Positions 5,585-64,000 of a DNA stretch of 64,000 bases are shown one piece after another. The stretch lies in the NCBI GenBank assembly GCA_041660005.1, contig JBAZXG010000002.1:122037-186036 (forward strand). The letters run 5' to 3'. Within the stretch, counting starts at the first letter, position 1. The number at the start of each line of letters is the position of its first letter. The notes under the pieces are model-generated. The model was not told the origin of the DNA. It saw nothing but the letters and a program-made list of their open reading frames with translations, and made no database searches. Made by a program: the position numbers and the translations under genes. The stretch is from Patescibacteria group bacterium. GTDB lineage: Bacteria > Patescibacteriota > Patescibacteriia > GWA2-46-9.

Positions 5585-6345
5585 ACTGGGTTGGACTTGC
5601 CACGCTTTACTGGCGCGAAATTCGTCGAACCTTTCAGGTTTCGATGCAGACGATTTTCCCGCCTATCATTACGTCTCTTTTGTACATTCTCATTTTTGGG
5701 AACGTTCTAGGATCTCGTATTCAAGAAATTTTACCCGGAGTGAGTTACATTGATTTTATGATTCCGGGCCTCCTCATGATGAACGTAATCTCTGCCAGCT
5801 TTTCAAGTAGTTCGGCGGTTATTTATATTGGTAAGTTACAAAACACCACTTCAGAACTTTTAGTTGCACCACTTTCCTATTTAGAAATTGTTTTAGGGTT
5901 TGTGCTAGCGGCGACAACACGGGGTTTAATTGTTGGGATGGGCGTTTATGGCGTGGCTCTCTTTTTTACGACCGCAACCTTCGCGCATTTTTGGATGTTT
6001 CTCTATTTTGTTCTGGCGACATCACTCCTCTTTGGTGCCGTTGGGGCGATGGTGGGGCTCTGGGCAGAAACGTTTGATCACGTTAATTTACCGAATACGT
6101 TTGTTTTGCTACCCCTCTCATTTTTTGGTGGGGTGTTCCATTCTATTAGACTGCTGCCGAGCTGGATGCAGACGCTGAGTCAAGCAAATCCCGTTTTTTA
6201 CATGGTAAATGGCATTCGCGCGAGTATGATTGGTACTGCTGACGTGCCGATGTATGTATCAGCAATCGTCGTGCTACTCCTTGCTGCTGTCAGTTTGACC
6301 TTTTGCGTTCGACTTTTTCAAAAAGGATACAACTTGCGGAGTTAG
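5581..6345 (+). CDS. ABC-2 family transporter permease
   Basis: 6-TM hydrophobic profile, translationally coupled to upstream ATPase (ATGA overlap). Confidence 0.8.
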   Translation: MNWVGLATLYWREIRRTFQVSMQTIFPPIITSLLYILIFGNVLGSRIQEILPGVSYIDFMIPGLLMMNVISASFSSSSAVIYIGKLQNTTSELLVAPLSYLEIVLGFVLAATTRGLIVGMGVYGVALFFTTATFAHFWMFLYFVLATSLLFGAVGAMVGLWAETFDHVNLPNTFVLLPLSFFGGVFHSIRLLPSWMQTLSQANPVFYMVNGIRASMIGTADVPMYVSAIVVLLLAAVSLTFCVRLFQKGYNLRS

Positions 6346-6346
6346 T
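6321..6346 (+). repeat. 26-bp direct repeat, left copy (3' end of permease gene); matches 8689..8714
   Basis: aaaaggatacaacttgcggagttagt vs aaaaggatataacttgcggagttagt, one mismatch, 2368 bp apart. Confidence 0.8.
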
Positions 6347-6458
6347 GTAAAATCTTGTGGGGTTTTTGCGGCGGTGCTAAGGTACCGTCGTTTGCTTTTA
6401 GTGTCCGGGAAGATGTACTAGACAGGTCTTTACCAGAGGAATAGGAGGAAGTTGGGTC

Positions 6459-7256
6459 ATGAAAGAGTTTTTGTTGCCAATGTATCTCGTGGGTATGGGT
6501 ACAGGGAGCGGTTCGACTCTTGCGGCCATAGAATTGGCGACCAAGGAAGGCGGTCCTTTGCATGGACTCGTCAGGATGGTCCTCGCAATCGCCACCAACG
6601 CCGAGGCCGGCCTCATCAAGAGGTTGACCGATCTTGGCATGGAGGAAGGCGAGAACCTTCTGGTCATGCCGTACAAGAAGGAGAAGTCCGAACAGTGGGG
6701 TCGGGACATTCTCCGGCGGTGCCGCGCATTCGGCGCAAATCAGTTCGGACTTTTCGGCTGTGTCCCGACGGTACCAGAGTCATGCATTGAAGCACTGATT
6801 ACCGACGGCGTGCGCTGCACAAACCAACATCCTGCGTGACCGAGAGAGTTCGGTGGCGTCGGCATGATTGGGAAACGCGCAGTGGCGGCGCAGCTCCTTT
6901 TTGAGAGGATGTTGCCTCGCGGGAACGACTTCACCGCTGCTGCCGTTTGCCAAGAGTTGGATCCCGCTGTCGACGGCGGGCGCGTTCTTCACTACGAGCG
7001 CTGCCCTATCCTCGACACCGACGACGCTGAATCGCTTCAGAAGCGGCTGCTCACGATCGAGCACAAGGTGCAGATCGAAGCGCTGCGTCGAGCAGCACTC
7101 GGTGAGCTCATTCCTGTCGAGTATCCTTCGCCAGTGAAGGCGGGGGAAGAAACTCGCTGTCGCTGGGCGAAAGAGGCGGCATTTGCTTTGTACCGCGAGG
7201 GCATTCCGTACCGGAAGTCTCTTGCTCAGATCTGGGCGCAGCAAGCCGCTCTATAG
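6459..7256 (+). pseudogene. phosphoribosylglycinamide formyltransferase-like (PurN family) interrupted by an in-frame TGA at 6837-6839; GC-rich
   Basis: ORF 6459..6839 (GTGSGSTLAAIELA ... NQHPA*) and same-frame ORF 6864..7256 (LPRGNDFTAAAV...DTDDAESLQKRLLTIEHKVQIEAL) together cover the PurN/formyltransferase fold; the two halves are in the same frame, separated by one TGA. Confidence 0.6.
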
Positions 7257-7269
7257 GAGACACAAGATC

Positions 7270-8562
7270 ATGAGAATCGGAATCATTGATGGAGGTGGCC
7301 GTGGAGCCGCCATAGCGAACGCGCTTTACAACACGGGTCGCAGGACTCGTGATGTAACGCACGTTTACAACATTGGTCGCAGTGTGGTCGGCGGATACTT
7401 CGCCGGCTCGGCGCCGACGATCAACCCGAACGACGACGAGGCCATCGCGGCCTACGTCAGGAAGATGAAGATCGACATCATCATTCCGGCACGCGACGCG
7501 GAACTCTGCGCTGGTCTCGTCGATCGTCTGACGGCGCGCGGTATCACCACGGTCGGCCCAACGGCTGAGGCGGCTCAGCTTGAAGGAAGCAAGGGTTTCT
7601 TTGCCGACCTCTGTGCTACGGTCGGAATTCCTTCCCCAGCGTCGATCGTCTGTACCAGTACAGCTCGGGCATCCTCGGCTGTGCGTCTTCTACACCGTCG
7701 GTTTGGTCAACTCCCCGTTGAGAAAGCTGATGGGCTGTGGGATGGAAAGGGAGTAGTCGTTCCAGAGACCCTCGACGAGGCCGATGCAGCAATCGCGATG
7801 CTGATGGCTGGCGGCAAAGATGTCGTCATTCAAGAGCGTCTCGACGGAGTCGAGTTCTCTTTCTTTGCTCTTTCAGACGGGAAGGTTGCAGTTCCGGTCG
7901 GGTCGGCCATTGACTACAAACGCCTTCTCGACGGCAGCATTGGTCCGAATACGGGCGGCATGGGAGCGGTGTCGCCAGTTCCGTTCGTGACCAAGATTCT
8001 GGAAGATCGAGTGATGAGAGAGGTCGTGCGTCCGCTCCTGTGGGTGATGGCCCGCCGGGGTACGCCATGCCGCGGTATCATCTATTGCGGGATGATGTTG
8101 ACCAAAGAGGGGCTGAAGGTCCTCGAGGTGAACGTGCGTTTTGGTGATCCCGAGGCGCAAGGTCTCCTTCCGCGGCTCGATCAGGTAAACGGTGCGACCT
8201 TGGCTGAGCTGCTCGTCGCCACCACCAAGGATGGTGAGCTCGAAAAGCTCAGCGTCCGCCTGCGGCCGGAGGCCGCAGTCTGTGTGGTGATGGCGTCCGC
8301 GGGATACCCCGAGGCGCCGAGGGAGGGTGATCCCATCCAGGGGCTTATCACGAACGTGGAGGGCACCGAAGTCTTCCACGCCGGCACCAAGCTCGCTGAC
8401 GACAGGCGAACTTTCCTCACCGACGGTGGGCGCGTTCTCGACGTCGTCGGGTTCGCCCCGACGGTTTTCGAGGCACGTAAGCGCGCCTATGCTCGCGTCG
8501 ATACCATCAGCTGGGATGGTGAGCAGCACCGTCATGACATCGCCGAAGACATAGCCGCCTAG
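7270..8562 (+). CDS. purD: phosphoribosylamine--glycine ligase (PurD), GC-rich
   Basis: MRIGIIDGGGRG N-terminus, near-exact PurD motif AAQLEGSKGF, ATP-grasp; RBS aggaga upstream of 7270. Confidence 0.8.
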   Translation: MRIGIIDGGGRGAAIANALYNTGRRTRDVTHVYNIGRSVVGGYFAGSAPTINPNDDEAIAAYVRKMKIDIIIPARDAELCAGLVDRLTARGITTVGPTAEAAQLEGSKGFFADLCATVGIPSPASIVCTSTARASSAVRLLHRRFGQLPVEKADGLWDGKGVVVPETLDEADAAIAMLMAGGKDVVIQERLDGVEFSFFALSDGKVAVPVGSAIDYKRLLDGSIGPNTGGMGAVSPVPFVTKILEDRVMREVVRPLLWVMARRGTPCRGIIYCGMMLTKEGLKVLEVNVRFGDPEAQGLLPRLDQVNGATLAELLVATTKDGELEKLSVRLRPEAAVCVVMASAGYPEAPREGDPIQGLITNVEGTEVFHAGTKLADDRRTFLTDGGRVLDVVGFAPTVFEARKRAYARVDTISWDGEQHRHDIAEDIAA

Positions 8563-8583
8563 CTTGGCGGCGTAACACACACA

Positions 8584-8665
8584 AAGGAGGGTTCAAACAG
8601 AACACAAGGAGGGAAGGCGGCGTTGTCACAGGGCAACGCCGTTTTTCCATGAGGAATATTTTGTG
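8584..8665 (+). repeat. about 80-bp unit containing an RBS-like aaggaggg and a rho-independent terminator (cggcgttg...caacgccg + TTTTT); copy 1 of 2
   Basis: Near-identical to 9209..9290; hairpin CGGCGTTG/CAACGCCG followed by gttttt. Confidence 0.75.
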
Positions 8666-8688
8666 ACTTTTCTTAGAAAAGTTTTTAG

Positions 8689-8714
8689 AAAAGGATATAA
8701 CTTGCGGAGTTAGT
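8689..8714 (+). repeat. 26-bp direct repeat, right copy (duplicate of permease 3' end), followed by hairpin gtcaac-tttaaacg-gttgac + T7 terminator at 8719-8750
   Basis: See 6321..6346. Confidence 0.8.
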
Positions 8715-8806
8715 ACGGGATTGGTCAACTTTAAACGGTTGACTTTTTTTGCAAAAAAGAGAAGAGTAGTTTGGTTCCACACGTTCAAGACAGGGGAGGT
8801 AAACCC

Positions 8807-9151
8807 ATGGCCGATTGCATTACGGATATGCTGAAAGGACAAGACCTCGCTGGCTGCCGAATCGAGACCTGGATCAGTCTCGAGTGGCCGACAGATGCAG
8901 GGAAGAGCGAGCACGTTGAGTACTTTTCACTGGCGGACCGCAAGGTCGTTCAAGACCTTGCTACCTCTGAAGGGATCCCTCCGCATTTCAAGGAGGTGCA
9001 AGTTCTGACGGACGGATGCGGTTCCGGTCTCATTGTTGGCAGGAGTGCTCACCTGTCAGCGGGCGAGGCCGCAAGGGCAAAGATCCAACTCAACGCCAGA
9101 GCAAGACTTCGTTCCATCGATGTAATAGCACTGGGCCTTTCGACGGAGTGA
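8807..9151 (+). CDS. hypothetical protein (about 114 aa), GC-rich cassette between two copies of the 80-bp terminator unit
   Basis: ORF with RBS ggggagg 8 nt upstream of ATG 8807; no recognisable motif. Confidence 0.4.
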   Translation: MADCITDMLKGQDLAGCRIETWISLEWPTDAGKSEHVEYFSLADRKVVQDLATSEGIPPHFKEVQVLTDGCGSGLIVGRSAHLSAGEAARAKIQLNARARLRSIDVIALGLSTE

Positions 9152-9208: not shown

Positions 9209-9290
9209 AAGGAGGGTCAAACAGAACATGAGGAGGGAAGGCGGCGTTGTCACAGGGCAACGCCGTTTTTCCATGAGAGGAATTTTGTCC
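9209..9290 (+). repeat. 80-bp terminator-containing unit, copy 2 of 2
   Basis: Matches 8584..8665. Confidence 0.75.
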
Positions 9291-9662
9291 ATTTCTTTGT
9301 GCGGGCAAAGAAATGGACGAAAGAAAGCCCGCCCCGCATCGACGCTCCAGGTCGGCAGTCATTCCGAAACAAACACGGCGGCAATGAACTCGCCTTCAGC
9401 TCAAACAGCATTGCCGCTCAGTCGTGTTCGTTTCGTCTGTCTGTTCTCCCCGGTCGATGAGGGGGTGTTGCAGAGTCCAAATCCCATAGGATCGGCGTCA
9501 GAGCTTGCGATGGAAGTGAGTGCTCTAATCTTTTAGGAGACGGTCGTGGTAATGCGAACAGGGTCTGTGGCGTTTGCTAGTTGTTGATAATTTTTGACTT
9601 GCAGTTTTGCCTTTTGATTTTTGAATTACTACTTACCTGTGCAGCCCGAGGACGTTATGTTT
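9289..9662. repeat. R1 composite structured element, copy A (begins with hairpin ccatttctttg-tgcgggca-caaagaaatgg, ends ...cagcccgaggacgttatg)
   Basis: Shares modules with 30523..31007, 48861..49290, 60020..60356: the covarying stem module (c/a)atgaactcg(y)c...caaacagcat; the piece cccataggatcggcgtcagagcttgc (inverted relative to copy D); and gttgataatttttgacttgcagttttg shared with copy B. Confidence 0.8.
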
Positions 9663-16917: not shown

Positions 16918-17035
16918 ATTATTTATTTTTGCCAATACCTCGTCGGCTTGCCGCGAAGATGTCATATACTGAGGCAAAAATATCCCTCGTAGCCGAGTTT
17001 GACTCGGCGAAGTGGGATTACCTAGTTTTCCCGTG
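16918..17035. repeat. R2 structured element, copy 1 (atttttgcc...cctcgtcggcttgccgcgagg...ggcaaaaat...gcgaagtgggattacct)
   Basis: Same element at 30231..30390 and 47963..48054; nested inverted repeats (9-bp outer stem, inner hairpin CCTCG(T)CGG-CTTG-CCGCGAGG). Confidence 0.8.
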
Positions 17036-17983
17036 AAACTGTTCGTGAACGTGACGCAGCTGTTGGTCGGTGAGGTGCGTGTAAATTTGCGTTGTGGTTA
17101 CTGAAGCGTGACCAAGAAGACTCTGCACTGACCGAAGATCAGCACCGTTAATAAGAAGGTCAGTGGCGAACGAGTGGCGGAGCGTATGCGGGCTCACTTT
17201 TTTTGTGATGCCGGCAACCTTGGCGTAGCGGCTGACGATGCGTTCAATACTGCGTGGTGTTAGTGGTGCGCCGCCCTCTTTGCGCTCGCGTTCCGTTTGT
17301 TTTGTCTTGGCGCGATCGTGGCGAATAAAAAGATAGGGCGAGGCGTCATGTCGCGCTTCAATATAAGAGCGAAGCAGCGCACGAGCGTCAGAAGAAAGAA
17401 ATACCACGCGCACCTTGCTACCCTTACCACGAACGCTGAATTCGGTGAGTGTATGCGCTTTGGTGTCGCGCAGGTTCACTTGGTCAATTTTTAAGTTTGC
17501 CAACTCAGAGACGCGCAGACCAGTTGAAAATGTTGATGCCAGCATCGCTTGGTCGCGTAGCATGAGAATTTTGGGCTGCTTCACGAGCGTTGGCGCGTTA
17601 AGTAGGCGTTCTAGTTCCGTGCTACTTAGAAATTCAATGGAGCGATCTGGCATTTTCATGAGTTCAATTTTCTCTGGCGCGAGACTCGTGACATCGCGCT
17701 TCGCTAGATATTTCAAAAATGAGCGCAGAGCAATGAGATGGTAATTCTGTGTATTTTTTTTAAGCGACTCACCCCGCGCATCAGTTAAACGATTCAGCCA
17801 TAGGCGATATTGCCGTATCAGCTCCGCGGATAGGTCTTTCGCATTTTTACTGCCACGTTCCTCGGCCCAGGCAACAAACCGATCAAGGTAGAAACTATAA
17901 TTGCGAATAGTCGCCGCGCTGCGGTTTCTTTCTATTTCTAAATATTCTAAAAATTCTTTGCGATAACGTTCGAGGTCGGCCAT
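17018..17983 (-). CDS. tyrosine recombinase XerC/XerD family
   Basis: C-terminal catalytic HTLRHSFATDLL...LLGHASVTTTQIYTH; N-terminal core-binding domain; start at MADLERY. Confidence 0.85.
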   Translation of the reverse strand: MADLERYRKEFLEYLEIERNRSAATIRNYSFYLDRFVAWAEERGSKNAKDLSAELIRQYRLWLNRLTDARGESLKKNTQNYHLIALRSFLKYLAKRDVTSLAPEKIELMKMPDRSIEFLSSTELERLLNAPTLVKQPKILMLRDQAMLASTFSTGLRVSELANLKIDQVNLRDTKAHTLTEFSVRGKGSKVRVVFLSSDARALLRSYIEARHDASPYLFIRHDRAKTKQTERERKEGGAPLTPRSIERIVSRYAKVAGITKKVSPHTLRHSFATDLLINGADLRSVQSLLGHASVTTTQIYTHLTDQQLRHVHEQFHGKTR

Positions 17984-18611
17984 AGCAGTATTGTACGACA
18001 CAACAGAGTGTGTGGCTACTTTACATCGAAGATGACTTTGCGTTGATGCAGTGTTGCGTCGTGAGGAAGGAATAGTGCTGCGCGACGTGGTGTTGCTATT
18101 TTTGGCTGGCACGGTCGAGGGTTACTATTCAACACGTTATTAGGTCTATATCCTTTCACTCCTGAAGTTTACTGAAGGACATCTCCACAAGAAGAGGGCA
18201 AGAAGTTTGACCGCTCGTTTTCCGTCGCACACTACCGTGACCCATAAACCAATGGTGTTCGAGCGACATCACAAGGCTAGTATCTCTCGAAGTGAAGCCA
18301 TGATCGTGTCTGCATAAGCTGGATACAAAAAGCTGTGAATATTGAGAGAAAAAGAAAAAGACCCCCCGGCGCAGAGAAAAAATTTGCGCCGAAGGGTCGA
18401 GGTGATCGAGGATCAAGTCCTCAATTCGATCGAATGAATTGTGCTGTTACTACTGCACAAACGCGGACGCTCCTCCATAGCGTTTGTCTGTGTCGCCTTC
18501 TGCAAAACTAATATCGTAATCGAGTCGGCCGTTACGGATGCGCCAGTGGGCAGCCCCATAGAAGGATAAACCGGAGCCGCCGTAGTTACGGCGGAGGCGG
18601 AAAGACCACAC

Positions 18612-30210: not shown

Positions 30211-30240
30211 TCTCCGGCCTCTGGCCGGAGTTTATTTTTG
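30211..30240 (+). terminator. recA terminator (ctccggcc-tc-tggccggag + TTTATTTTT) overlapping the start of R2 copy 2
   Basis: Perfect 8-bp stem followed by T-run. Confidence 0.65.
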
Positions 30241-30390
30241 CCTAACCACCTCGTCGGCTTGCCGCGAGGTTACCGTTGCAGAAGACAAAAATATCCCGCG
30301 TAGCTCCCTGACCGTCCGTAGCCTTGCTGTGTCCCGCCGTAGTTTTATACGAGCGGGAGCGAAGGAGGTTAGCGAAGTGGGATTACCTAT
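30231..30390. repeat. R2 structured element, copy 2 (expanded by an internal insertion of about 70 bp)
   Basis: tttatttttgcctaaccacctcgtcggcttgccgcgagg ... gcgaagtgggattacct. Confidence 0.8.
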
Positions 30391-30522
30391 TCATTTGGTG
30401 CTTTCACAAACGAAGAAATAACAACCCTGAGTAGAATCGAAGGGTTACAATCTTTATTTTTCATCCTTACATACTTGAGAATGTTGGTATGACAGTTTGC
30501 TTGTTTATTATATCACTCAGTA

Positions 30523-31007
30523 AACCTCGCCCCGTCTGACGGGGCTGTGGGTTGCCTACTTTCTTACTCGCCTAAGAAAGTAGGCGGAAAGAACGGCGCC
30601 CCTGTGTCGACACTATCGTCGGCGAACGTTCCTCAGTGCGGGTGGCGACAATGAACTCGTCTTCGTCTCAAACAGCATCGTCGCTTATTCACCCGCACTT
30701 CGTCCGTTCGCTCTCCTCGGTCGGCAATGGGGTTTGGCAGAGTGAAGTGAACAATTCCTTTAGGAAACGGCCGTGGTAACGGGAGCGGCGTCTACGGTGT
30801 TTATTTGCAGTTGATAATTTTTGACTTGCAGTTTTGACTTTTGCCTTTTGATTTATAATTTCTGCTAGCCCATACAGCTCGAGGACGTTATGTTTATGTA
30901 ATGAAACTCCTACAGGATCGGCGTCGGTAATGACCGAAGAGGAACATTCAGGGCGGGATTTCTTTCACCTCTTTCCTTGTCTAAACAAAGAAAGGAGTAC
31001 GGTTTCT
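30523..31007. repeat. R1 composite structured element, copy B
   Basis: hairpin ctactttctta-ctcgcc-taagaaagtag, module gacaatgaactcgtc...caaacagcatcgtcgc, gttgataatttttgacttgcagttttg, cagctcgaggacgttatg, ctcctacaggatcggcgtc, terminal hairpin. Confidence 0.8.
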
Positions 31008-34754: not shown

Positions 34755-34900
34755 TTATTGTTGTGTGGGTATTGAACTGCCTCGACGTTATGTCGGGGCA
34801 GTTTTATTTTTGCCGAGGATAGTGAGTGGAGTACAAACAGTAATTTGTATTTCCGAACGACGCAGGCATCAAAGGGTTTAGTATCCATGTATTATGTTTT

Positions 34901-34936
34901 TTACACCATTTTGTGCGTACGCACAAAATGGTGTAA
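34901..34936. repeat. 36-bp perfect palindrome P, copy 1 (TTACACCATTTTGTGC-GTAC-GCACAAAATGGTGTAA)
   Basis: Identical sequence at 47900..47935; flanking tattatgttttt is also shared in inverted orientation. Confidence 0.9.
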
Positions 34937-35025
34937 TTTGACACTTACGTAGCTCTGCCGCGTCGCCTTTCTCAATACGCCGGTGGGCGTATTGAGGGAG
35001 CCAGGGCTTTGCCTTGAGGTAGTTG

Positions 35026-47807: not shown

Positions 47808-47899
47808 ATGGTATTAACCCCATAGAAAGTCCCGGAGCATTTTATCTGCCACCGAGCGAACTGAAAAAGGGAGTGCGACAGAGCTACGTAAGTATCAAA

Positions 47900-47935
47900 T
47901 TACACCATTTTGTGCGTACGCACAAAATGGTGTAA
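47900..47935. repeat. 36-bp perfect palindrome P, copy 2
   Basis: Identical to 34901..34936. Confidence 0.9.
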
Positions 47936-47962
47936 AAAACATAATAAGTGATATTTAACCCT

Positions 47963-48054
47963 TTATTTTTGCCAATACCTCGTCGGCTTGCCGCGAGGTT
48001 ACCATATACTGAGGCAAAAATATCCCTCGTAGCTTTAGCGAAGTGGGATTACCT
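47963..48054. repeat. R2 structured element, copy 3
   Basis: ctttatttttgccaatacctcgtcggcttgccgcgaggttaccatatactgaggcaaaaatatccctcgtagctttagcgaagtgggattacct. Confidence 0.85.
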
Positions 48055-48133
48055 ATGTATACCCCGTCCCCTTTAGGGCGGGGTAATTGACTTGCCTGCG
48101 TCGGCTCGAAGACCCGGCAGTAAAGTTTTGATC

Positions 48134-48780: not shown

Positions 48781-48860
48781 GCAGTCCCTCCTGGTTTTTT
48801 GCACTGCTGCAGATTAAAATTAGTTTAACGTTATTAAAGACAAAATCAAGTTCAAATTGT

Positions 48861-49290
48861 CCACTTTCTTACTTGTCTAAGAAAGTGGACGGAAAGAATG
48901 ACACCCTGAGGACTCGGCTGTGGGCTTGCTTCATACAGCAGACTGCTGACCATGAACTCGTCATCCGCCCCATAGCGGATTCCTCAAACAGCATGGTCAC
49001 TAAGTGCAGTCTGCTTCCCTCGCAAGCTTTGACGCCGATCCTAAGGGATTTTGCACTCTGCTCTGCCAAACCCCTGGTGTCCGGTCGTGGCAATGAGGAC
49101 GAAGACAGGACGAAAGAAAACAAGAGCATGTGTGAGATGAACCACAAGGTGAGGCGAGTTTGCTCTTGTTCGTCCTGCTGAGGAAGGAATGCCCGACCGG
49201 AGCACCCGGGGCGGGCTTCTTTGGGTACTTTCTTGCCCGCACAAGAAAGTACCAACTAGTCGCGAGGGCACAGCCCGAGGACGTTATGAG
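48861..49290. repeat. R1 composite structured element, copy C
   Basis: hairpin ccactttctta-cttgtc-taagaaagtgg; cctgaggactcggctgtgggcttgcttc; gaccatgaactcgtc...caaacagcatggtca; gacgccgatcctaaggg; hairpin gtactttcttg-cccgca-caagaaagtac; cagcccgaggacgttatg. Confidence 0.8.
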
Positions 49291-59812: not shown

Positions 59813-60019
59813 GGGGAGAATAATATATTTTTCTTCTTCTATATTATAGCACCTTAAATTTGTCCTGCGATGCAGGACTGTAATTTGTTCGTTTTCGTCT
59901 TCTTAAGCTGCTAACGTCCTCGGTCCGCCGAGGTGGACCTCGCGACTGTTTGTTACTCTTTTGCGCACCCAAAATTTATTAACAAGAGCAAGTCCGCCAG
60001 AGGCGGATCCGCCTTTGGC

Positions 60020-60356
60020 GGAAAAAGGGTGCCCTGAGGACTCGGCTGTGGGCTTGCTTCGTGCAGCAGGCTGCTGACCATGAACTTGTCGCTTCGCTCC
60101 GCAAACAGCATGGTCATTAAATGCAGCCTGTTTCCCTTGCAAGCTCTGACGCCGATCCTATGGGATGAGCACTTTGCTAAACCCCATTGCCGACCGCGGA
60201 AAGCGAACGGACGAAGTGTGGGTGGTTAAGCGACGGTGTTGTTTGAAGCGGAGCAAGTTCATCGTCGCCATCCACACTGAGGAACGTTCGCCGACGAGAG
60301 TGTCGGCACAGGGCGGGCTTTCTTTCGTCTATTTCTTTGCCCGCACAAAGAAATAG
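60020..60356. repeat. R1 composite structured element, copy D (left half like copy C; right half is the reverse complement of the copy-B module)
   Basis: cctgaggactcggctgtgggcttgcttc; gaccatgaacttgtc...caaacagcatggtca; gacgccgatcctatggg; inverted B-like segment; terminal hairpin ctatttctttg-cccgca-caaagaaatag. Confidence 0.8.
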
Positions 60357-60418
60357 ACAACTTAATTTGTATTTGCGATTTCGCAAAAAATGTGCTAAAA
60401 TAAAAAAACTATCATTCT

Positions 60419-61921
60419 ATGCAACCAAAGAGAAACGAGGACTCATCACAAGCGGTGCGCCTTTTTCAGACCAAGAAGAGTGAATACTGGGTCCGCTCGG
60501 GCCAAGCAAATGCTATCTCACTTTTTAAAAAAGCGGCTCGGCTCGTTCCTGCCTATCGTCATTTTTTAAAAAAACATCGGGTGAACCCTTCCAAGATTCG
60601 CACCTGGAACGATTTTCAACACCTGCCGACCATTGATAGGAAGAACTACCTTACGCAGTATCCGCTGGAAAATTTAGTTTGGCCGACAGCGTTTGATTCA
60701 GGAACCGTGTTATCGGCTACTTCAGGTTCTTCGGGTGCGCCATTCTATTTTCCACGCAGCGCAGCTGTTGACGCACATTCTTCTGCCTATCATCGATGGT
60801 TTCTGTCACACCGATCAGCGGGCAAACGTGATCGCACACTCGTCATCGACTGCTTTGGTATGGGTGTATGGATCGGCGGCATAATTACCTATCAAGCATT
60901 TCGGAATATCGCCGACGAGGGTTATCCGCTTACCATTATTACCCCTGGCGTCAACAAGAAGCAGATTTTTGAATCGCTGGTGAATGTCGCTCCAAAGTTT
61001 TCAACGGTTGTTCTTTGCGGTTATCCGCCGTTTCTGAAAGATGTCATTGACCAGGCGGCAGACAATGGCGTGCGTTGGTCGACACTCAATCTCAAGTTTC
61101 TTTTTGCGGCTGAACCGTTCTCGGAAAAGTTTCGACAGTACGTCGTGGAGAAAACGAATGTGCACAATCACTACACCGACACCACCAACGTTTACGGCAG
61201 CGCCGACCTTGGCACCATGGCGCTCGAAACGCCGCTTACTATTTTGATGCGTGAAATTGCACTCGGGGACAAGAATATCTATCAGCGCTTTTTTCAAAAA
61301 GTTGACCGCTTGCCGACGTTGGCTCAGTTCAACCCACAGGCGGTTCAGTTTGAAGCGCCGGAGGGGAACGTCCTCTGCACGGGCAATAGCAGCTTGCCGC
61401 TCATTCGTTATGCCATTGGTGACAACGGTGCGGTGGCCAGTTTTGACGAAGCAGCTGATGTGTTTACGCATGACAAAATTAATTTGCGCCAAGCGGCGCG
61501 TCGTGCCGATATTAGCAAAACGCTTGCTGAGCTACCTTTTGTGTACATTTACGAACGCTCAGACCTTTCGACGAAGCTCTACGGCGCAACCATTTACCCC
61601 GAACATTTGAAAGATGCGTTACGTGAATCGCCACTGGATCGCTCACTCACCGGCAATTTTACTTTGCGGACAAAATATGACCGACACGAAAACGAATACC
61701 TCGAGGTTAACATCGAGCTCCGCCCGAAGATTAAAGCCAGCCGTACATTGAAAGGGCTCCTTGTAGAAAAAATTACGGCTGCGTTTATGGAGAAAAATGC
61801 GGAGTACAGGAATAACATGCATGTCATGCCCGAACGCATGCGACCGCATTTGGTGTTTTGGCAGCATGAGCACCCGCTCCATTTCAGCCGCGGGGCAAAA
61901 CATAAGTGGGCAAAGCACTAA
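60419..61921 (+). CDS. adenylate-forming enzyme, phenylacetate-CoA ligase / coenzyme F390 synthetase (PaaK/CapK) family
   Basis: ATSGSSGAPFYFP (P-loop equivalent), YGSADLG, LPLIRYAIGD hinge motif. Confidence 0.7.
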   Translation: MQPKRNEDSSQAVRLFQTKKSEYWVRSGQANAISLFKKAARLVPAYRHFLKKHRVNPSKIRTWNDFQHLPTIDRKNYLTQYPLENLVWPTAFDSGTVLSATSGSSGAPFYFPRSAAVDAHSSAYHRWFLSHRSAGKRDRTLVIDCFGMGVWIGGIITYQAFRNIADEGYPLTIITPGVNKKQIFESLVNVAPKFSTVVLCGYPPFLKDVIDQAADNGVRWSTLNLKFLFAAEPFSEKFRQYVVEKTNVHNHYTDTTNVYGSADLGTMALETPLTILMREIALGDKNIYQRFFQKVDRLPTLAQFNPQAVQFEAPEGNVLCTGNSSLPLIRYAIGDNGAVASFDEAADVFTHDKINLRQAARRADISKTLAELPFVYIYERSDLSTKLYGATIYPEHLKDALRESPLDRSLTGNFTLRTKYDRHENEYLEVNIELRPKIKASRTLKGLLVEKITAAFMEKNAEYRNNMHVMPERMRPHLVFWQHEHPLHFSRGAKHKWAKH

Positions 61922-63163: not shown

Positions 63164-64000
63164 ATGGTTCTTGAAGGGAAGATGCGCCAACTCATTACTG
63201 CCGCCACCTTGGCGCCGTCGGGCGAGAATTGTCAGCCCTGGCGTTTTGTGATTAACGGCAATGAATTGCAGCTTTTTAACGTGCCCGAACGAGATGATTC
63301 GCTCTATAACTTTCGTCAGCGCGGGTCATTGGTTGCCCATGGGGCATTACTTGAAAATTTTACAATTGCAGCGAAAGCGCTTGGTTTTAACGCAGACATT
63401 CGGCTTTTCCCTGATGCGCAAAATGAGAATTTAGTTGCCGCCATTCATCTCGAGAACGCTGAACCTGTGGCTGATCCACTCTATGCGGCGATAACCGCGC
63501 GGAGCACGAATCGCAAACCATACGCGAACGAGTCGCTTACTACTAGTGAACGAGAGTCTATTAATGCCGCTGGGGTTTCTACGAGCTGTCGGTTCGTCTT
63601 AATTGAACAGAAAGAATCCATTAGCACGTGGGCCACGGCAGCGAGCGCTAACGAGCGCGTTATGTTTGAGCATCACGGCCTCCATGATTTTTTCTTTTCG
63701 CATCTTAATTGGACAGACGCAGAGGAACAGGAACGACGGCACGGGTTTTACATAAAAACGCTTGAACTCCAACCACCGCAAGTCATCGGCATGAAAATTG
63801 CTAAGCACTGGGCTGTGGCTTCAGTTTTGAACCGCTTGGGTCTTTCTAAACAGGTTGCTGCGGACAATATAAAGTCCAACTCCGCTGCTGCGGCAATTGG
63901 TGGCGTGGTGATTCACGGTGAGCGACCGCAAGATTTTGTTGAGGCCGGTCGCATTGTTGAGCGTGTCTGGCTGACCGTTACGAATTTAGGATTGAGTCTG
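63164..64000 (+). CDS. nitroreductase-family (FMN-dependent) two-domain protein, 3'-truncated by window edge
   Basis: Hand-translated MVLEGKMRQLITAATLAPSGENCQPWRF (nitroreductase SxxNxQPW motif); frame open to end of window. Confidence 0.65.
   Translation, partial: MVLEGKMRQLITAATLAPSGENCQPWRFVINGNELQLFNVPERDDSLYNFRQRGSLVAHGALLENFTIAAKALGFNADIRLFPDAQNENLVAAIHLENAEPVADPLYAAITARSTNRKPYANESLTTSERESINAAGVSTSCRFVLIEQKESISTWATAASANERVMFEHHGLHDFFFSHLNWTDAEEQERRHGFYIKTLELQPPQVIGMKIAKHWAVASVLNRLGLSKQVAADNIKSNSAAAAIGGVVIHGERPQDFVEAGRIVERVWLTVTNLGLSL

Follow-up and report, generated by a model that had tools for sequence, protein, structure and literature searches.

Interspersed structured repeats of the kinds known as REP (repetitive extragenic palindrome), BIME (bacterial interspersed mosaic element), ERIC and BOX are as a rule restricted to one genus, and the BIMEs of Escherichia coli contain REPs of two types, Y and Z. 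We describe here a repeat, R1, in a 64,000-nt stretch of a Patescibacteria group bacterium genome (GenBank assembly GCA_041660005.1, contig JBAZXG010000002.1, positions 122,037–186,036 of the forward strand), which we call the window. R1 consists of four head-to-head pairs of a ~200-nt non-coding unit. In its working it is most like the REPs and BIMEs, yet it departs from their defining traits of size, motif and confinement to a lineage, and neither its invariant core nor its pseudoknot domain has a counterpart there. The reading that we favor, at a probability of roughly one half, is that R1 is a non-autonomous, REP/BIME-like interspersed structured element of a cross-phylum family, which acts as a single-stranded nucleic acid, probably RNA.

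Like REPs, BIMEs and REPINs, the R1 units are non-coding structured intergenic repeats that lie mostly after gene 3′ ends and differ in copy number between genomes. They likewise form inverted doublets of two subtypes (compare the Y and Z REPs of BIMEs), make mosaics with other modules, and have compensated stems. A REP, however, is a palindrome of 20–40 nt with a lineage- or species-specific sequence and a GTAG-type 5′ motif, whereas the R1 unit is multi-helix, with a pseudoknot and a 21-nt core that is identical across phyla, and its ends share no GTAG-type motif. A RAYT (REP-associated tyrosine transposase), such as accompanies REPs and REPINs, was seen neither in the window nor among the 25 most shared of the 154 Pfam families found in 118 open reading frames (ORFs) neighboring family members; families present in a single ORF lie mostly outside these 25.

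Units and covariation

Six intact units and two decayed partners were found in the window, at loci A, B, C and D (9.3, 30.5, 48.9 and 60.0 kb). Loci C and D hold two units each, inverted, with the pair made up of subtypes V and U and with the terminal hairpins at the outer ends; loci A and B each hold one intact unit and the remains of a decayed partner. The sense strand is taken here as the one that gives the conserved core as ATGCTGTTTGAG...CGAGTTCAT. All-against-all blastn of the four regions gave matches in both orientations, with E down to 1e-49: A and D have 232 nt in common (inverted), B and D 171 nt at 85% (inverted), and C and D 159 nt (direct). The six units were found by nhmmer with E from 1e-37 to 1e-55. 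Five of them score 44–65 bits with a covariance model and the sixth, which is degenerate, 21.6 bits; run unfiltered on the window, the model finds the same six and nothing else. The exact inner stem-loop pattern matches four times in the window, against 0.00 expected.

A first-pass annotation, made by a model from the sequence alone, had seen here four elements built of shuffled and inverted modules. They are instead six units at four loci and, while there is a mosaic, the arrangement is mostly a regular head-to-head pair of two subtypes, plus decay. The motifs it named could all be read directly in the four regions where it had placed them, and the right half of D is indeed the reverse complement of the left half of B, at 86–87% over 71–84 nt.

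Three parts make up each unit: a long, irregular hairpin that the ends of the unit close, an invariant apical module (ATGCTGTTTGAG…CGAGTTCAT), and a terminal pyrimidine/purine (Y/R) hairpin with a matching Y/R tract. Read in the antisense direction, which is the + strand at loci A and B, the unit opens with a 13-bp hairpin whose 5′ arm is pyrimidine and 3′ arm purine (for example gtccatttctttg TGCGGG caaagaaatggac), followed by a purine tract (GAAAGAAAG) and by a complement of the hairpin loop, 4–6 nt long. Next, CCCC and a second helix jointly close the long irregular hairpin; a conserved bulge of 4–6 nt comes 6–9 bp below the apex, and the invariant apical module surrounds a small variable hairpin, after which the returning strands finish in GGGG(T)TT. 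Five intact terminal Y/R hairpins and a degenerate one occur in the 64 kb. Perfect hairpins with arms particular to each copy had been reported, and those at 9287–9318, 30554–30585, 48859–48890, 49224–49253 and 60327–60358 are each self-complementary. The inner stem-loop, too, is compensated as reported (ggcaatg/cattgcc, gacaatg/catcgtc and gaccatg/catggtc, around aactcgYc...caaacag).

Predicted folds of single units range from −58 to −93 kcal/mol. RNAalifold of the six window units gave 46–47 consensus pairs, 22–25 of them with double compensatory changes. In an alignment of 35 sequences across lineages, 21 core positions are 90–100% conserved. In the stem around the core 96.9% of cells are paired, and 101 are doubly changed compared with 25 ± 5 in shuffles; the covariation score of this stem was reached by 0 of 500 shuffles, and partners slid by 1–3 columns pair at 30–48%. 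These results show the unit to be constrained as a single-stranded fold. The earlier argument from stem covariation to selection on the fold is thereby extended, from double changes within the window to double changes across phyla and to the pairing of the hairpin loop with its flank, described below. Coding potential was rejected: the gaps between the ATG and the second half of the core (7, 22, 11, 8 ... nt) do not keep frame.

Pseudoknot and possible triple helix

The loop of the terminal hairpin is complementary to the sequence beyond the purine tract, and this pairing covaries. The loop/flank pairs are TGCGGG/CCCGC in unit A and in the U units of C and D (C-U, D-U), CTCGCC/GGCG in unit B, and CTTGTC/GACA in the V unit of C (C-V); elsewhere they are CTTGAT/ATCAAG and CTTGAA/TTCAAG (Bacteroidota, Ignavibacteriota) and GGCGGC/GCCGCC (L055). 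Complementarity of the loop to its own flank averages 4.58 nt, compared with 3.50 ± 0.25 for permuted partners, a value that 0 of 10000 permutations reach. A loop-to-flank helix, that of a pseudoknot, is thus supported by covariation.

In composition the purine tract matches the purine arm beside it, and tract length goes with stem length (r = 0.50). On the sense strand a U.A-U triple helix might arise from the Y tract, the Y arm and the R arm, with the loop pairing as its clamp at the 3′ end, where it could serve as a nuclease-resistant cap. Triple-helix pseudoknots and 3′-end triplexes (telomerase RNA, the SAM-II and preQ1-II riboswitches, and the ENE, or element for nuclear expression, of MALAT1/PAN) likewise have a U-rich strand beside a U-rich/A-rich helix and a pseudoknot clamp. 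The likeness to the 3′-end triple helices extends to the position of the clamp, which on the sense strand of R1 sits at the 3′ end of the fold; unlike in ENE elements, the order of strands differs in R1, and the R1 loop lengths are tight for A-form RNA. The bacterial triple helices in a 2026 review are those of riboswitches and group II introns only (PMC13541005). Should the hairpin, tract and loop pairing of R1 form a triplex, an RNA-stability device of eukaryotes and viruses would be extended to bacteria, and a triplex-capped RNA class would be the first bacterial triple-helix RNA end cap.

Occurrence in other lineages

One genome per GTDB species was scanned with the exact pattern ATGAACTYGYC-N5-30-CAAACAGCAT. 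This core pattern was found in 109 stretches of the species-representative genomes, with 56 matches having complementary flanks (52 outside the window and the window's four); matches lacking the flanking stem are chance matches inside genes. Viral contigs gave five matches to the core pattern, all without the flanking stem and thus due to chance. A covariance model from the 35-sequence alignment found 60 copies in the first 100 loci and 8 further matches in the remaining nine.

A unit with an identical 21-base core occurs in at least seven lineages besides that of the window. Its carriers include a Melioribacteraceae metagenome-assembled genome (MAG) with at least 12 nearly identical copies and an Omnitrophota MAG with at least 7. 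Four loci are in Variovorax (V. robiniae and V. rhizosphaerae), and Flavobacteriia isolates of Lutibacter, Aureisphaera, Pseudofulvibacter, Mesonia and Flavobacterium caeni have members, as do Chitinophagaceae, Hydrotalea, other Ignavibacteriales, MAGs of Desulfobacterota, Thermodesulfobacteriota and Geobacter, and Clostridia. V. paradoxus VAI-C has a further copy, which bears no annotation and is flanked by convergent genes, on its second replicon (2.5 Mb). Most members from Bacteroidota, Ignavibacteriota and Desulfobacterota also have the Y/R hairpin, the purine tract and the complement of the loop (for example gtaccctttctttg GCGG caaagaaagggtac ccccaagaaa GCCGCC); Variovorax, Omnitrophota and Clostridia members have the long hairpin with the core alone.

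Conservation beyond the source genome, on which the first-pass annotation had let its proposal depend, is thus seen in many phyla, and the R1 family is more general than was supposed there. Judged by these matches, the unit is a peculiarity neither of the source genome nor of the Patescibacteria: core and architecture are kept from a small-genome bacterium to Variovorax, Flavobacteriia, Ignavibacteriota, Omnitrophota, Desulfobacterota and Clostridia. A core identical across phyla implies either that a conserved partner recognizes it or that the element moves efficiently between phyla. With several of the carriers in culture, transcripts could be mapped, structures probed and pull-downs made directly.

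The pairing of units also recurs. Intact pairs are head-to-head, − then + on the model strand, in five of five cases (C and D of the window, and the Variovorax loci L049, L073 and L077), an order that is invariant to reverse-complementing the locus and that the remnants at A and B also fit. The members of Variovorax pairs are of two subtypes, with ~82% identity between subtypes and 92–98% within a subtype across loci, parallel to V and U of the window.

Two lineages have additional sequence around their copies. In the Melioribacteraceae MAG JALVFE01 (L010, L013, L018, L022, L027 and others) copies stand within arrays made of other short repeats (gtcatcccgaac..gtttcgggatct; hairpin aaacgccgtatggcgtg), whose modules are variably present in a BIME-like mosaic; many of the matches there are at contig ends, and the repeats therefore appear to break assemblies. 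In three Flavobacteriia loci (L012, L058 and L065) conservation continues for more than 100 nt past the unit (gggtcccgaagtcgaatcg ... atgcagaatag..gtcaagctccgagattcaggcc) without an Rfam match, which suggests a larger version of the unit or an attached second element.

Strand and chemistry

The terminal loops of the sense strand read G(N)NA (GAA, GCA, GGA, GUA, GUAA, GGAA) and are closed by C-G, in at least 12 lineages. On the sense strand only can the core form GUUUG/CGAGU, in which the sole frequent variant, G to A, replaces a U.G pair by U-A. With the core masked, sense folds are the more stable in 39 of the 50 non-tied folds among 52 distinct members (11 favoring antisense), which is weak evidence; the first comparison, at 50 of 52, was inflated because the invariant core holds three G.U pairs. 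In DNA, C-GNA-G triloops, GCGAAGC among them, have exceptional stability, and such loops together with a Y.R-Y triplex would also suit single-stranded DNA (ssDNA). We consider the sense strand quite probably the active one. The active form is somewhat better than an even bet to be RNA; ssDNA is possible at distinctly longer odds, and a form that is neither seems improbable.

Genomic context and insertion

Pfam scans of ~60 ORFs in the window revealed housekeeping genes only, including purD, guaA, IMPDH, recA, efp, ssb, murD, gdh, pnp, ftsK, topA, dprA, relA and tyrS. The sole recombinase is an Xer-like tyrosine recombinase (17018–18112, minus strand), 7 kb from R1. Transposase, reverse transcriptase and Cas genes, said to be missing next to the repeats, are in fact missing, along with TnpB, from the whole 64 kb as covered by these scans. 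Nor is there gene linkage elsewhere: none of the 154 Pfam families of neighboring ORFs is enriched, and no transposase, reverse transcriptase or TnpB is among the 25 most shared.

Locus A lies after guaA, B between the convergent recA and efp, and C between the convergent murD and gdh; D lies between divergent genes, one for an aminotransferase and one unknown. Canonical terminators precede the repeats after guaA (9720–9703) and recA (30212–30230), and the promoter-like site of the gene at 60419 is outside locus D, so the pairs sit in gaps expected to be little transcribed. Members of the family elsewhere are often multicopy, have housekeeping genes on either side and mostly adjoin gene 3′ ends. 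The repeats had been placed at the edges of GC-rich, foreign-looking blocks, which holds for A and D (adjacent GC 0.57–0.59) and not clearly for C; a gap between the terminators of neighboring genes is the better description.

The metagenome contig L116, whose RecA is ~77% identical, shares with the window the gene order from recA through efp, ssb and rpsF to the gene after it. Between recA and efp it has ~100 nt, with a single bidirectional terminator in them, compared with 1033 nt in the window, where an R2 repeat and R1 locus B fill the spacer; this difference from a syntenic relative shows that the elements were inserted. No copy was found by the covariance model in 80 metagenome recA loci (~0.55 Mb), including four relatives with RecA 74–80% identical, these four closest totaling ~31 kb. 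The nearly identical copies in the Melioribacteraceae and Omnitrophota MAGs point to recent amplification, and at the left flank of B a V-unit fragment is fused to the hairpin of a U unit, which shows recombination or nesting between copies. R1 had been thought a mobile or recombining element, and of this the mosaic and the insertion relative to a syntenic genome stand, while mobility itself is only inferred. A comparison of flanks for target-site duplications, which had been proposed as a check, gave longest direct repeats of 4–8 nt between 30-nt flanks, of low complexity and none at the junctions.

Search among known families

Rfam 15 at gathering score finds two tRNAs in the window and nothing at R1, in agreement with the earlier impression that R1 belongs to no known element class. 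At E ≤ 10, loci A and C gave chance snoRNA and miRNA matches only, far below cut-off, and the 18 + 8 loci examined from other phyla had no Rfam match at the element, whether to HEARO, IS605-orfB or another family. A C/D-box identity was rejected, the sR30 match being weak (E = 0.003, 16 bits under cut-off). Identities as tRNA-like or T-loop structures, as signal recognition particle RNA or 6S RNA, as a mimic of 5S/23S rRNA, as similar to a Cas9 repeat/anti-repeat, as ssoA CS-6 and as ssDNA promoters were dropped, none being supported by any analysis. A literature search with the core sequence in both orientations returned primers and reporter genes only, though a description in literature beyond that searched is possible, and in the literature found on structured multicopy RNAs, repeats of the candidate phyla radiation and bacterial triple helices no similar element is described. 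R1 is thus absent from Rfam and goes unannotated even in a complete RefSeq-style genome; a covariance model for it would explain many apparently empty long intergenic spacers and many MAG contig breaks.

Other interspersed repeats share part of the R1 character. ERIC/IRU, BOX, Correia/NEMIS, RUP and MITE-like (miniature inverted-repeat transposable) elements are also modular, of 100–400 bp, intergenic or in 3′ untranslated regions, and form long hairpins when transcribed. These families, however, are confined to a genus or family and have transposase-type terminal inverted repeats and target-site duplications, whereas in R1 no duplication was found and it is the apex and not the ends that is conserved. 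MITEs derived from DDE transposons have terminal inverted repeats and a variable interior; R1 is the reverse, with an invariant apex and outer stems that vary and covary. The palindrome-associated elements (PATEs) of IS200/IS605 and the omega-RNAs of TnpB/IscB are like R1 in being structured, of ~150–220 nt, multicopy, with a pseudoknot, without target-site duplication and possibly active when single-stranded. Unlike them, R1 has no variable guide-like end and its pairs have inverted end hairpins, and none of tnpA, tnpB and iscB is beside the 56 confirmed copies, among the 25 most shared neighboring families.

Integron attC sites are, like R1, recombination-prone hairpins defined by structure and variable in sequence, marking gene-sized blocks. 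They are 57–141 nt long, with R′′/L′′-L′/R′ boxes and a GTTRRRY core, in same-orientation arrays beside intI, unlike the ~200-nt units and inverted pairs of R1; the sole GTT-motif candidate in R1, GTTATGT, violates the RRR rule, and the window has no intI. An Xer/dif site has 28 bp and conserved protein-binding arms and occurs once per replicon, whereas R1 arms vary and covary, and the spacer pairs with the flank. In a test for terminators (GC-rich hairpin plus U run) a consensus scan flags the hairpin at 60327–60358, but its stem is AT-rich; the other unit hairpins lack a T run.

Alternative explanations

An invariant core with covarying stems is what sibling small RNAs have, and R1 might be a small RNA gene family, its units transcribed outward from a bidirectional promoter at the pair centre and acting in trans, with the apical module binding or sponging a conserved protein and the triplex/pseudoknot cap stabilizing the 3′ end. 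The G(N)NA loops on one strand would fit this, as would the fixed head-to-head order, which puts both 5′ ends at the conserved centre TTGCAAGCTCTGACGCCGATCCTAWGGGAT, and at locus D both units face the flanking divergent genes. Such a family nonetheless appears rather unlikely: the centres of the pairs showed no sigma-70-like promoter, near-identical copies are conserved only to the fold ends with no promoter carried along, most copies have no terminator-like U run after the 3′ hairpin, the element is missing at the same site in close relatives, and copy numbers from 0 to more than 12 per genome are unusual for a housekeeping RNA. Absence of a promoter from the unit would instead favor an ssDNA substrate that folds during replication, transformation or conjugation and is cut or recombined by an HUH enzyme (RAYT/IS200-like) or a tyrosine recombinase encoded elsewhere, in the manner of REPINs, IS200/IS605 PATEs or integron attC sites. 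C-GNA-G triloops are very stable in DNA, the homopurine/homopyrimidine mirror arrangement can form a DNA triplex and, by our reasoning, B-form geometry eases the loop-length problem of a sense-strand pseudoknot; inverted doublets are known from REPINs, and IS200/IS605 also leaves no target-site duplication. We hold this to be unlikely, as neither a Y1/HUH enzyme nor a RAYT nor an integron integrase was seen in the window or in the 25 most shared of the 154 neighboring families, a set that a family with a single match could escape, the core helix of 5 bp has three G.T pairs, which in DNA would be weak, REP and attC sequences are lineage-specific while the R1 core is identical across phyla, and the end hairpins of pairs are inverted where those of IS200/IS605 are direct.

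The position of A, B and C between convergent genes (guaA; recA/efp; murD/gdh), together with that of most members elsewhere between gene 3′ ends, suits a cis-acting 3′-end module, in which the antisense unit would come last in the transcript of the gene that it faces, starting with the pseudoknot and ending with the closing helix and a U-rich end, as a back-up terminator, insulator or mRNA stabilizer between convergent genes. Classical H-type pseudoknot geometry fits the antisense strand, and at the recA-efp site a bidirectional terminator is present in the relative L116. Yet guaA and recA have canonical terminators upstream of the repeats, so little read-through should reach R1; locus D is between divergent genes, the antisense terminal loops read U(N)NC and are non-stabilizing, and termination needs no invariant 21-nt core, all of which makes a cis-acting module improbable. 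Poorer still is the case for the 11-6-11 or 13-6-13 palindromes as double-stranded dif/FRT-like sites of the Xer-like recombinase at 17018–18112, with inversions and mosaics coming from site-specific recombination. A tyrosine recombinase is present in the window, the layout of 11 + 6 + 11 bp is appropriate, and there is a third, adjacent arm-like tract as in FRT. But the arms vary between copies and remain perfectly complementary within each, which indicates base pairing and no protein-binding consensus, the spacer covaries with the flank, the same type of hairpin occurs in other phyla within a larger fold, and the Variovorax, Omnitrophota and Clostridia units do without it; we consider such sites very improbable.

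For the units as probable non-autonomous elements of the REP/BIME kind, we suggest the following working. The units would settle in gaps with little transcription, change over time through compensatory substitutions and recombine among themselves, which would account for the mosaic loci A and B. A trans-acting factor that copies or uses them may have the invariant apical module as its handle, and the active form would be single-stranded, sense-strand RNA being likelier than ssDNA. A more specific proposal, which we make tentatively, is of an uncatalogued cross-phylum class of structured RNA of ~200 nt, in which an invariant G.U-rich apical helix docks a conserved cellular or element-encoded factor and the 3′ end is a pseudoknot-clamped U.A-U triplex, with non-autonomous spread as head-to-head pairs of two subtypes.

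Several observations count against the reading of R1 as a spreading element that acts as sense-strand RNA. No mobilizing enzyme, target-site duplication or transposase-type terminal inverted repeat was found, and for this reason mobility is inferred rather than demonstrated. In the near-identical copies of the Melioribacteraceae and Omnitrophota MAGs conservation stops at the fold ends, so that no promoter travels with the unit. The strand is also called into question: isolated transition mismatches in stems have no clear strand bias (4.5 versus 7.4, lineage-weighted), folding is about as good on one strand as on the other in the window's own units, in several lineages the closing helix has a U-rich stretch after it on the antisense strand, and the sole sigma-70-like site beside a unit (30484–30511) points antisense. 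By our own geometric reasoning, a fully paired 6-nt loop with linkers of 0–1 nt in A-form RNA fits the antisense strand better, where it would make a classical H-type pseudoknot with an A-rich loop 3. As to the register of the third strand, a mirror repeat is better in 5 cases and a direct repeat in 3, with 10 ties; register thus lacks statistical support, and the triple helix is therefore offered as a hypothesis and not as a finding.

Description of the loci

At locus A, the intact unit A (U subtype) occupies 9283–9500 on the − strand (nhmmer E = 4.8e-54; covariance-model core 9352–9443, 62.2 bits; folded). Its terminal hairpin at 9287–9318, seen by direct reading and by a hairpin finder, has a 13-bp homopyrimidine/homopurine stem and the loop TGCGGG at 9300–9305. 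The purine tract GAAAGAAAG and then GCCCGC, the pseudoknot partner by the complementarity test, follow at 9319–9332, and the invariant apical module is at 9384–9411 (−), from the exact pattern match and the 35-sequence alignment. Of the partner on the + strand a decayed 5′ part remains at 9501–9582, where gacggtcgtggtaatg resembles ccggtcgtggcaatg of unit C-U (direct reading; blastn of 9515–9662 against 30741–30895). An AT-rich module at 9583–9659 (+), found by repeat finding and blastn and comprising gttgataatttttgacttgcagttttg (9583–9609) and cagcccGAGGAcgttATG (9642–9659), is common to loci A and B and stands in place of the partner unit's core.

Locus B begins with the V-subtype fragment ccccgtctgacggggctgtgggttgc (30523–30553, +; direct reading against C-V and D-V), fused to the hairpin of the intact unit B. 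This unit is of the U subtype and lies at 30550–30750 on the − strand (nhmmer E = 4.8e-54; core 30619–30710, 64.7 bits), with its hairpin at 30554–30585 and apical module at 30651–30678. The decayed partner at 30751–30997 (+) was delimited by direct reading, repeat finding and blastn, with a partial nhmmer match at 30932–30993; it retains a 5′ remnant acggccgtggtaacg similar to C-U, the AT-rich module (30810–30836), GAGGAcgttATG (30875–30892), cctacaggatcggcgtc (30909–30925) and a degenerate 3′ domain with an imperfect hairpin (30951–30997).

The left unit of locus C, C-V, is at 48857–49050 on the − strand (nhmmer E = 4.2e-50; core 48920–49026, 50 bits), with its hairpin at 48859–48890, tract and loop complement at 48891–48903, and apical module at 48952–48994. 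The right unit, C-U (49052–49258, +; nhmmer E = 1.5e-46; core 49098–49195, 21.6 bits), has a degenerate apical module, loop complement and Y tract at 49207–49223, and hairpin at 49224–49253. Repeat finding places a cagcccGAGGAcgttATG module after it at 49271–49288 (+). At locus D the left unit, D-V (60020–60168, −; nhmmer E = 6.6e-37; core 60048–60143, 44.7 bits; apical module 60080–60111), has no Y/R hairpin, in place of which are two small GC hairpins at 59993–60022. The right unit, D-U (60150–60362, +; nhmmer E = 1.1e-55; core 60204–60294, 51 bits), has loop complement and Y tract at 60311–60326 and its hairpin at 60327–60358.

A Shine-Dalgarno-like module, cagcYcGAGGAcgttATG, occurs at 9642–9659, 30875–30892, 49271–49288 and 63652–63669, and in degenerate form at 59912–59934 (−). 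The modules are followed by ORFs of just 2–22 codons (ATGTTTATGTAA, ATGAGTTAA); at C-U and D-V the module comes after the unit in the sense direction.

Other repeats in the window

Upstream of locus A, a 75-nt direct repeat (91%; 8590–8664 and 9214–9288) contains a terminator-like hairpin (ggcggcgttg...caacgccgttttt). Its copies follow purD and a 126-aa ORF (8771–9151) with no Pfam match, and the second ends exactly at the start of locus A. A 33-nt direct repeat (91%; 6314–6346 and 8682–8714) brackets a GC-rich block at 6347–8681 (GC 0.53–0.59) that contains split purN-like ORFs and purD; since the first copy is the 3′ end of an ABC-2 permease gene, this looks like an integration or duplication junction. 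The formyltransferase (purN-like) frame is apparently split into 6459–6839 and 6864–7256, with a weak Formyl_trans_N match in the second only, and may be a pseudogene.

The R2 repeat (16922–17025, 30233–30390 and 47962–48056) is a second structured element, with no Rfam match. Its first copy abuts the 3′ end of the Xer-like gene and adjoins a tRNA-Arg, and the other two neighbor loci B and C of R1. A 121-nt inverted repeat (81%; 34890–35010 and 47826–47946) contains a perfect 36-nt palindrome (TTACACCATTTTGTGCGTACGCACAAAATGGTGTAA); one copy adjoins a GC-rich block with a dihydrodipicolinate synthase (DHDPS)-like gene (35.2–36.0 kb, GC 0.595), and the other adjoins R2.

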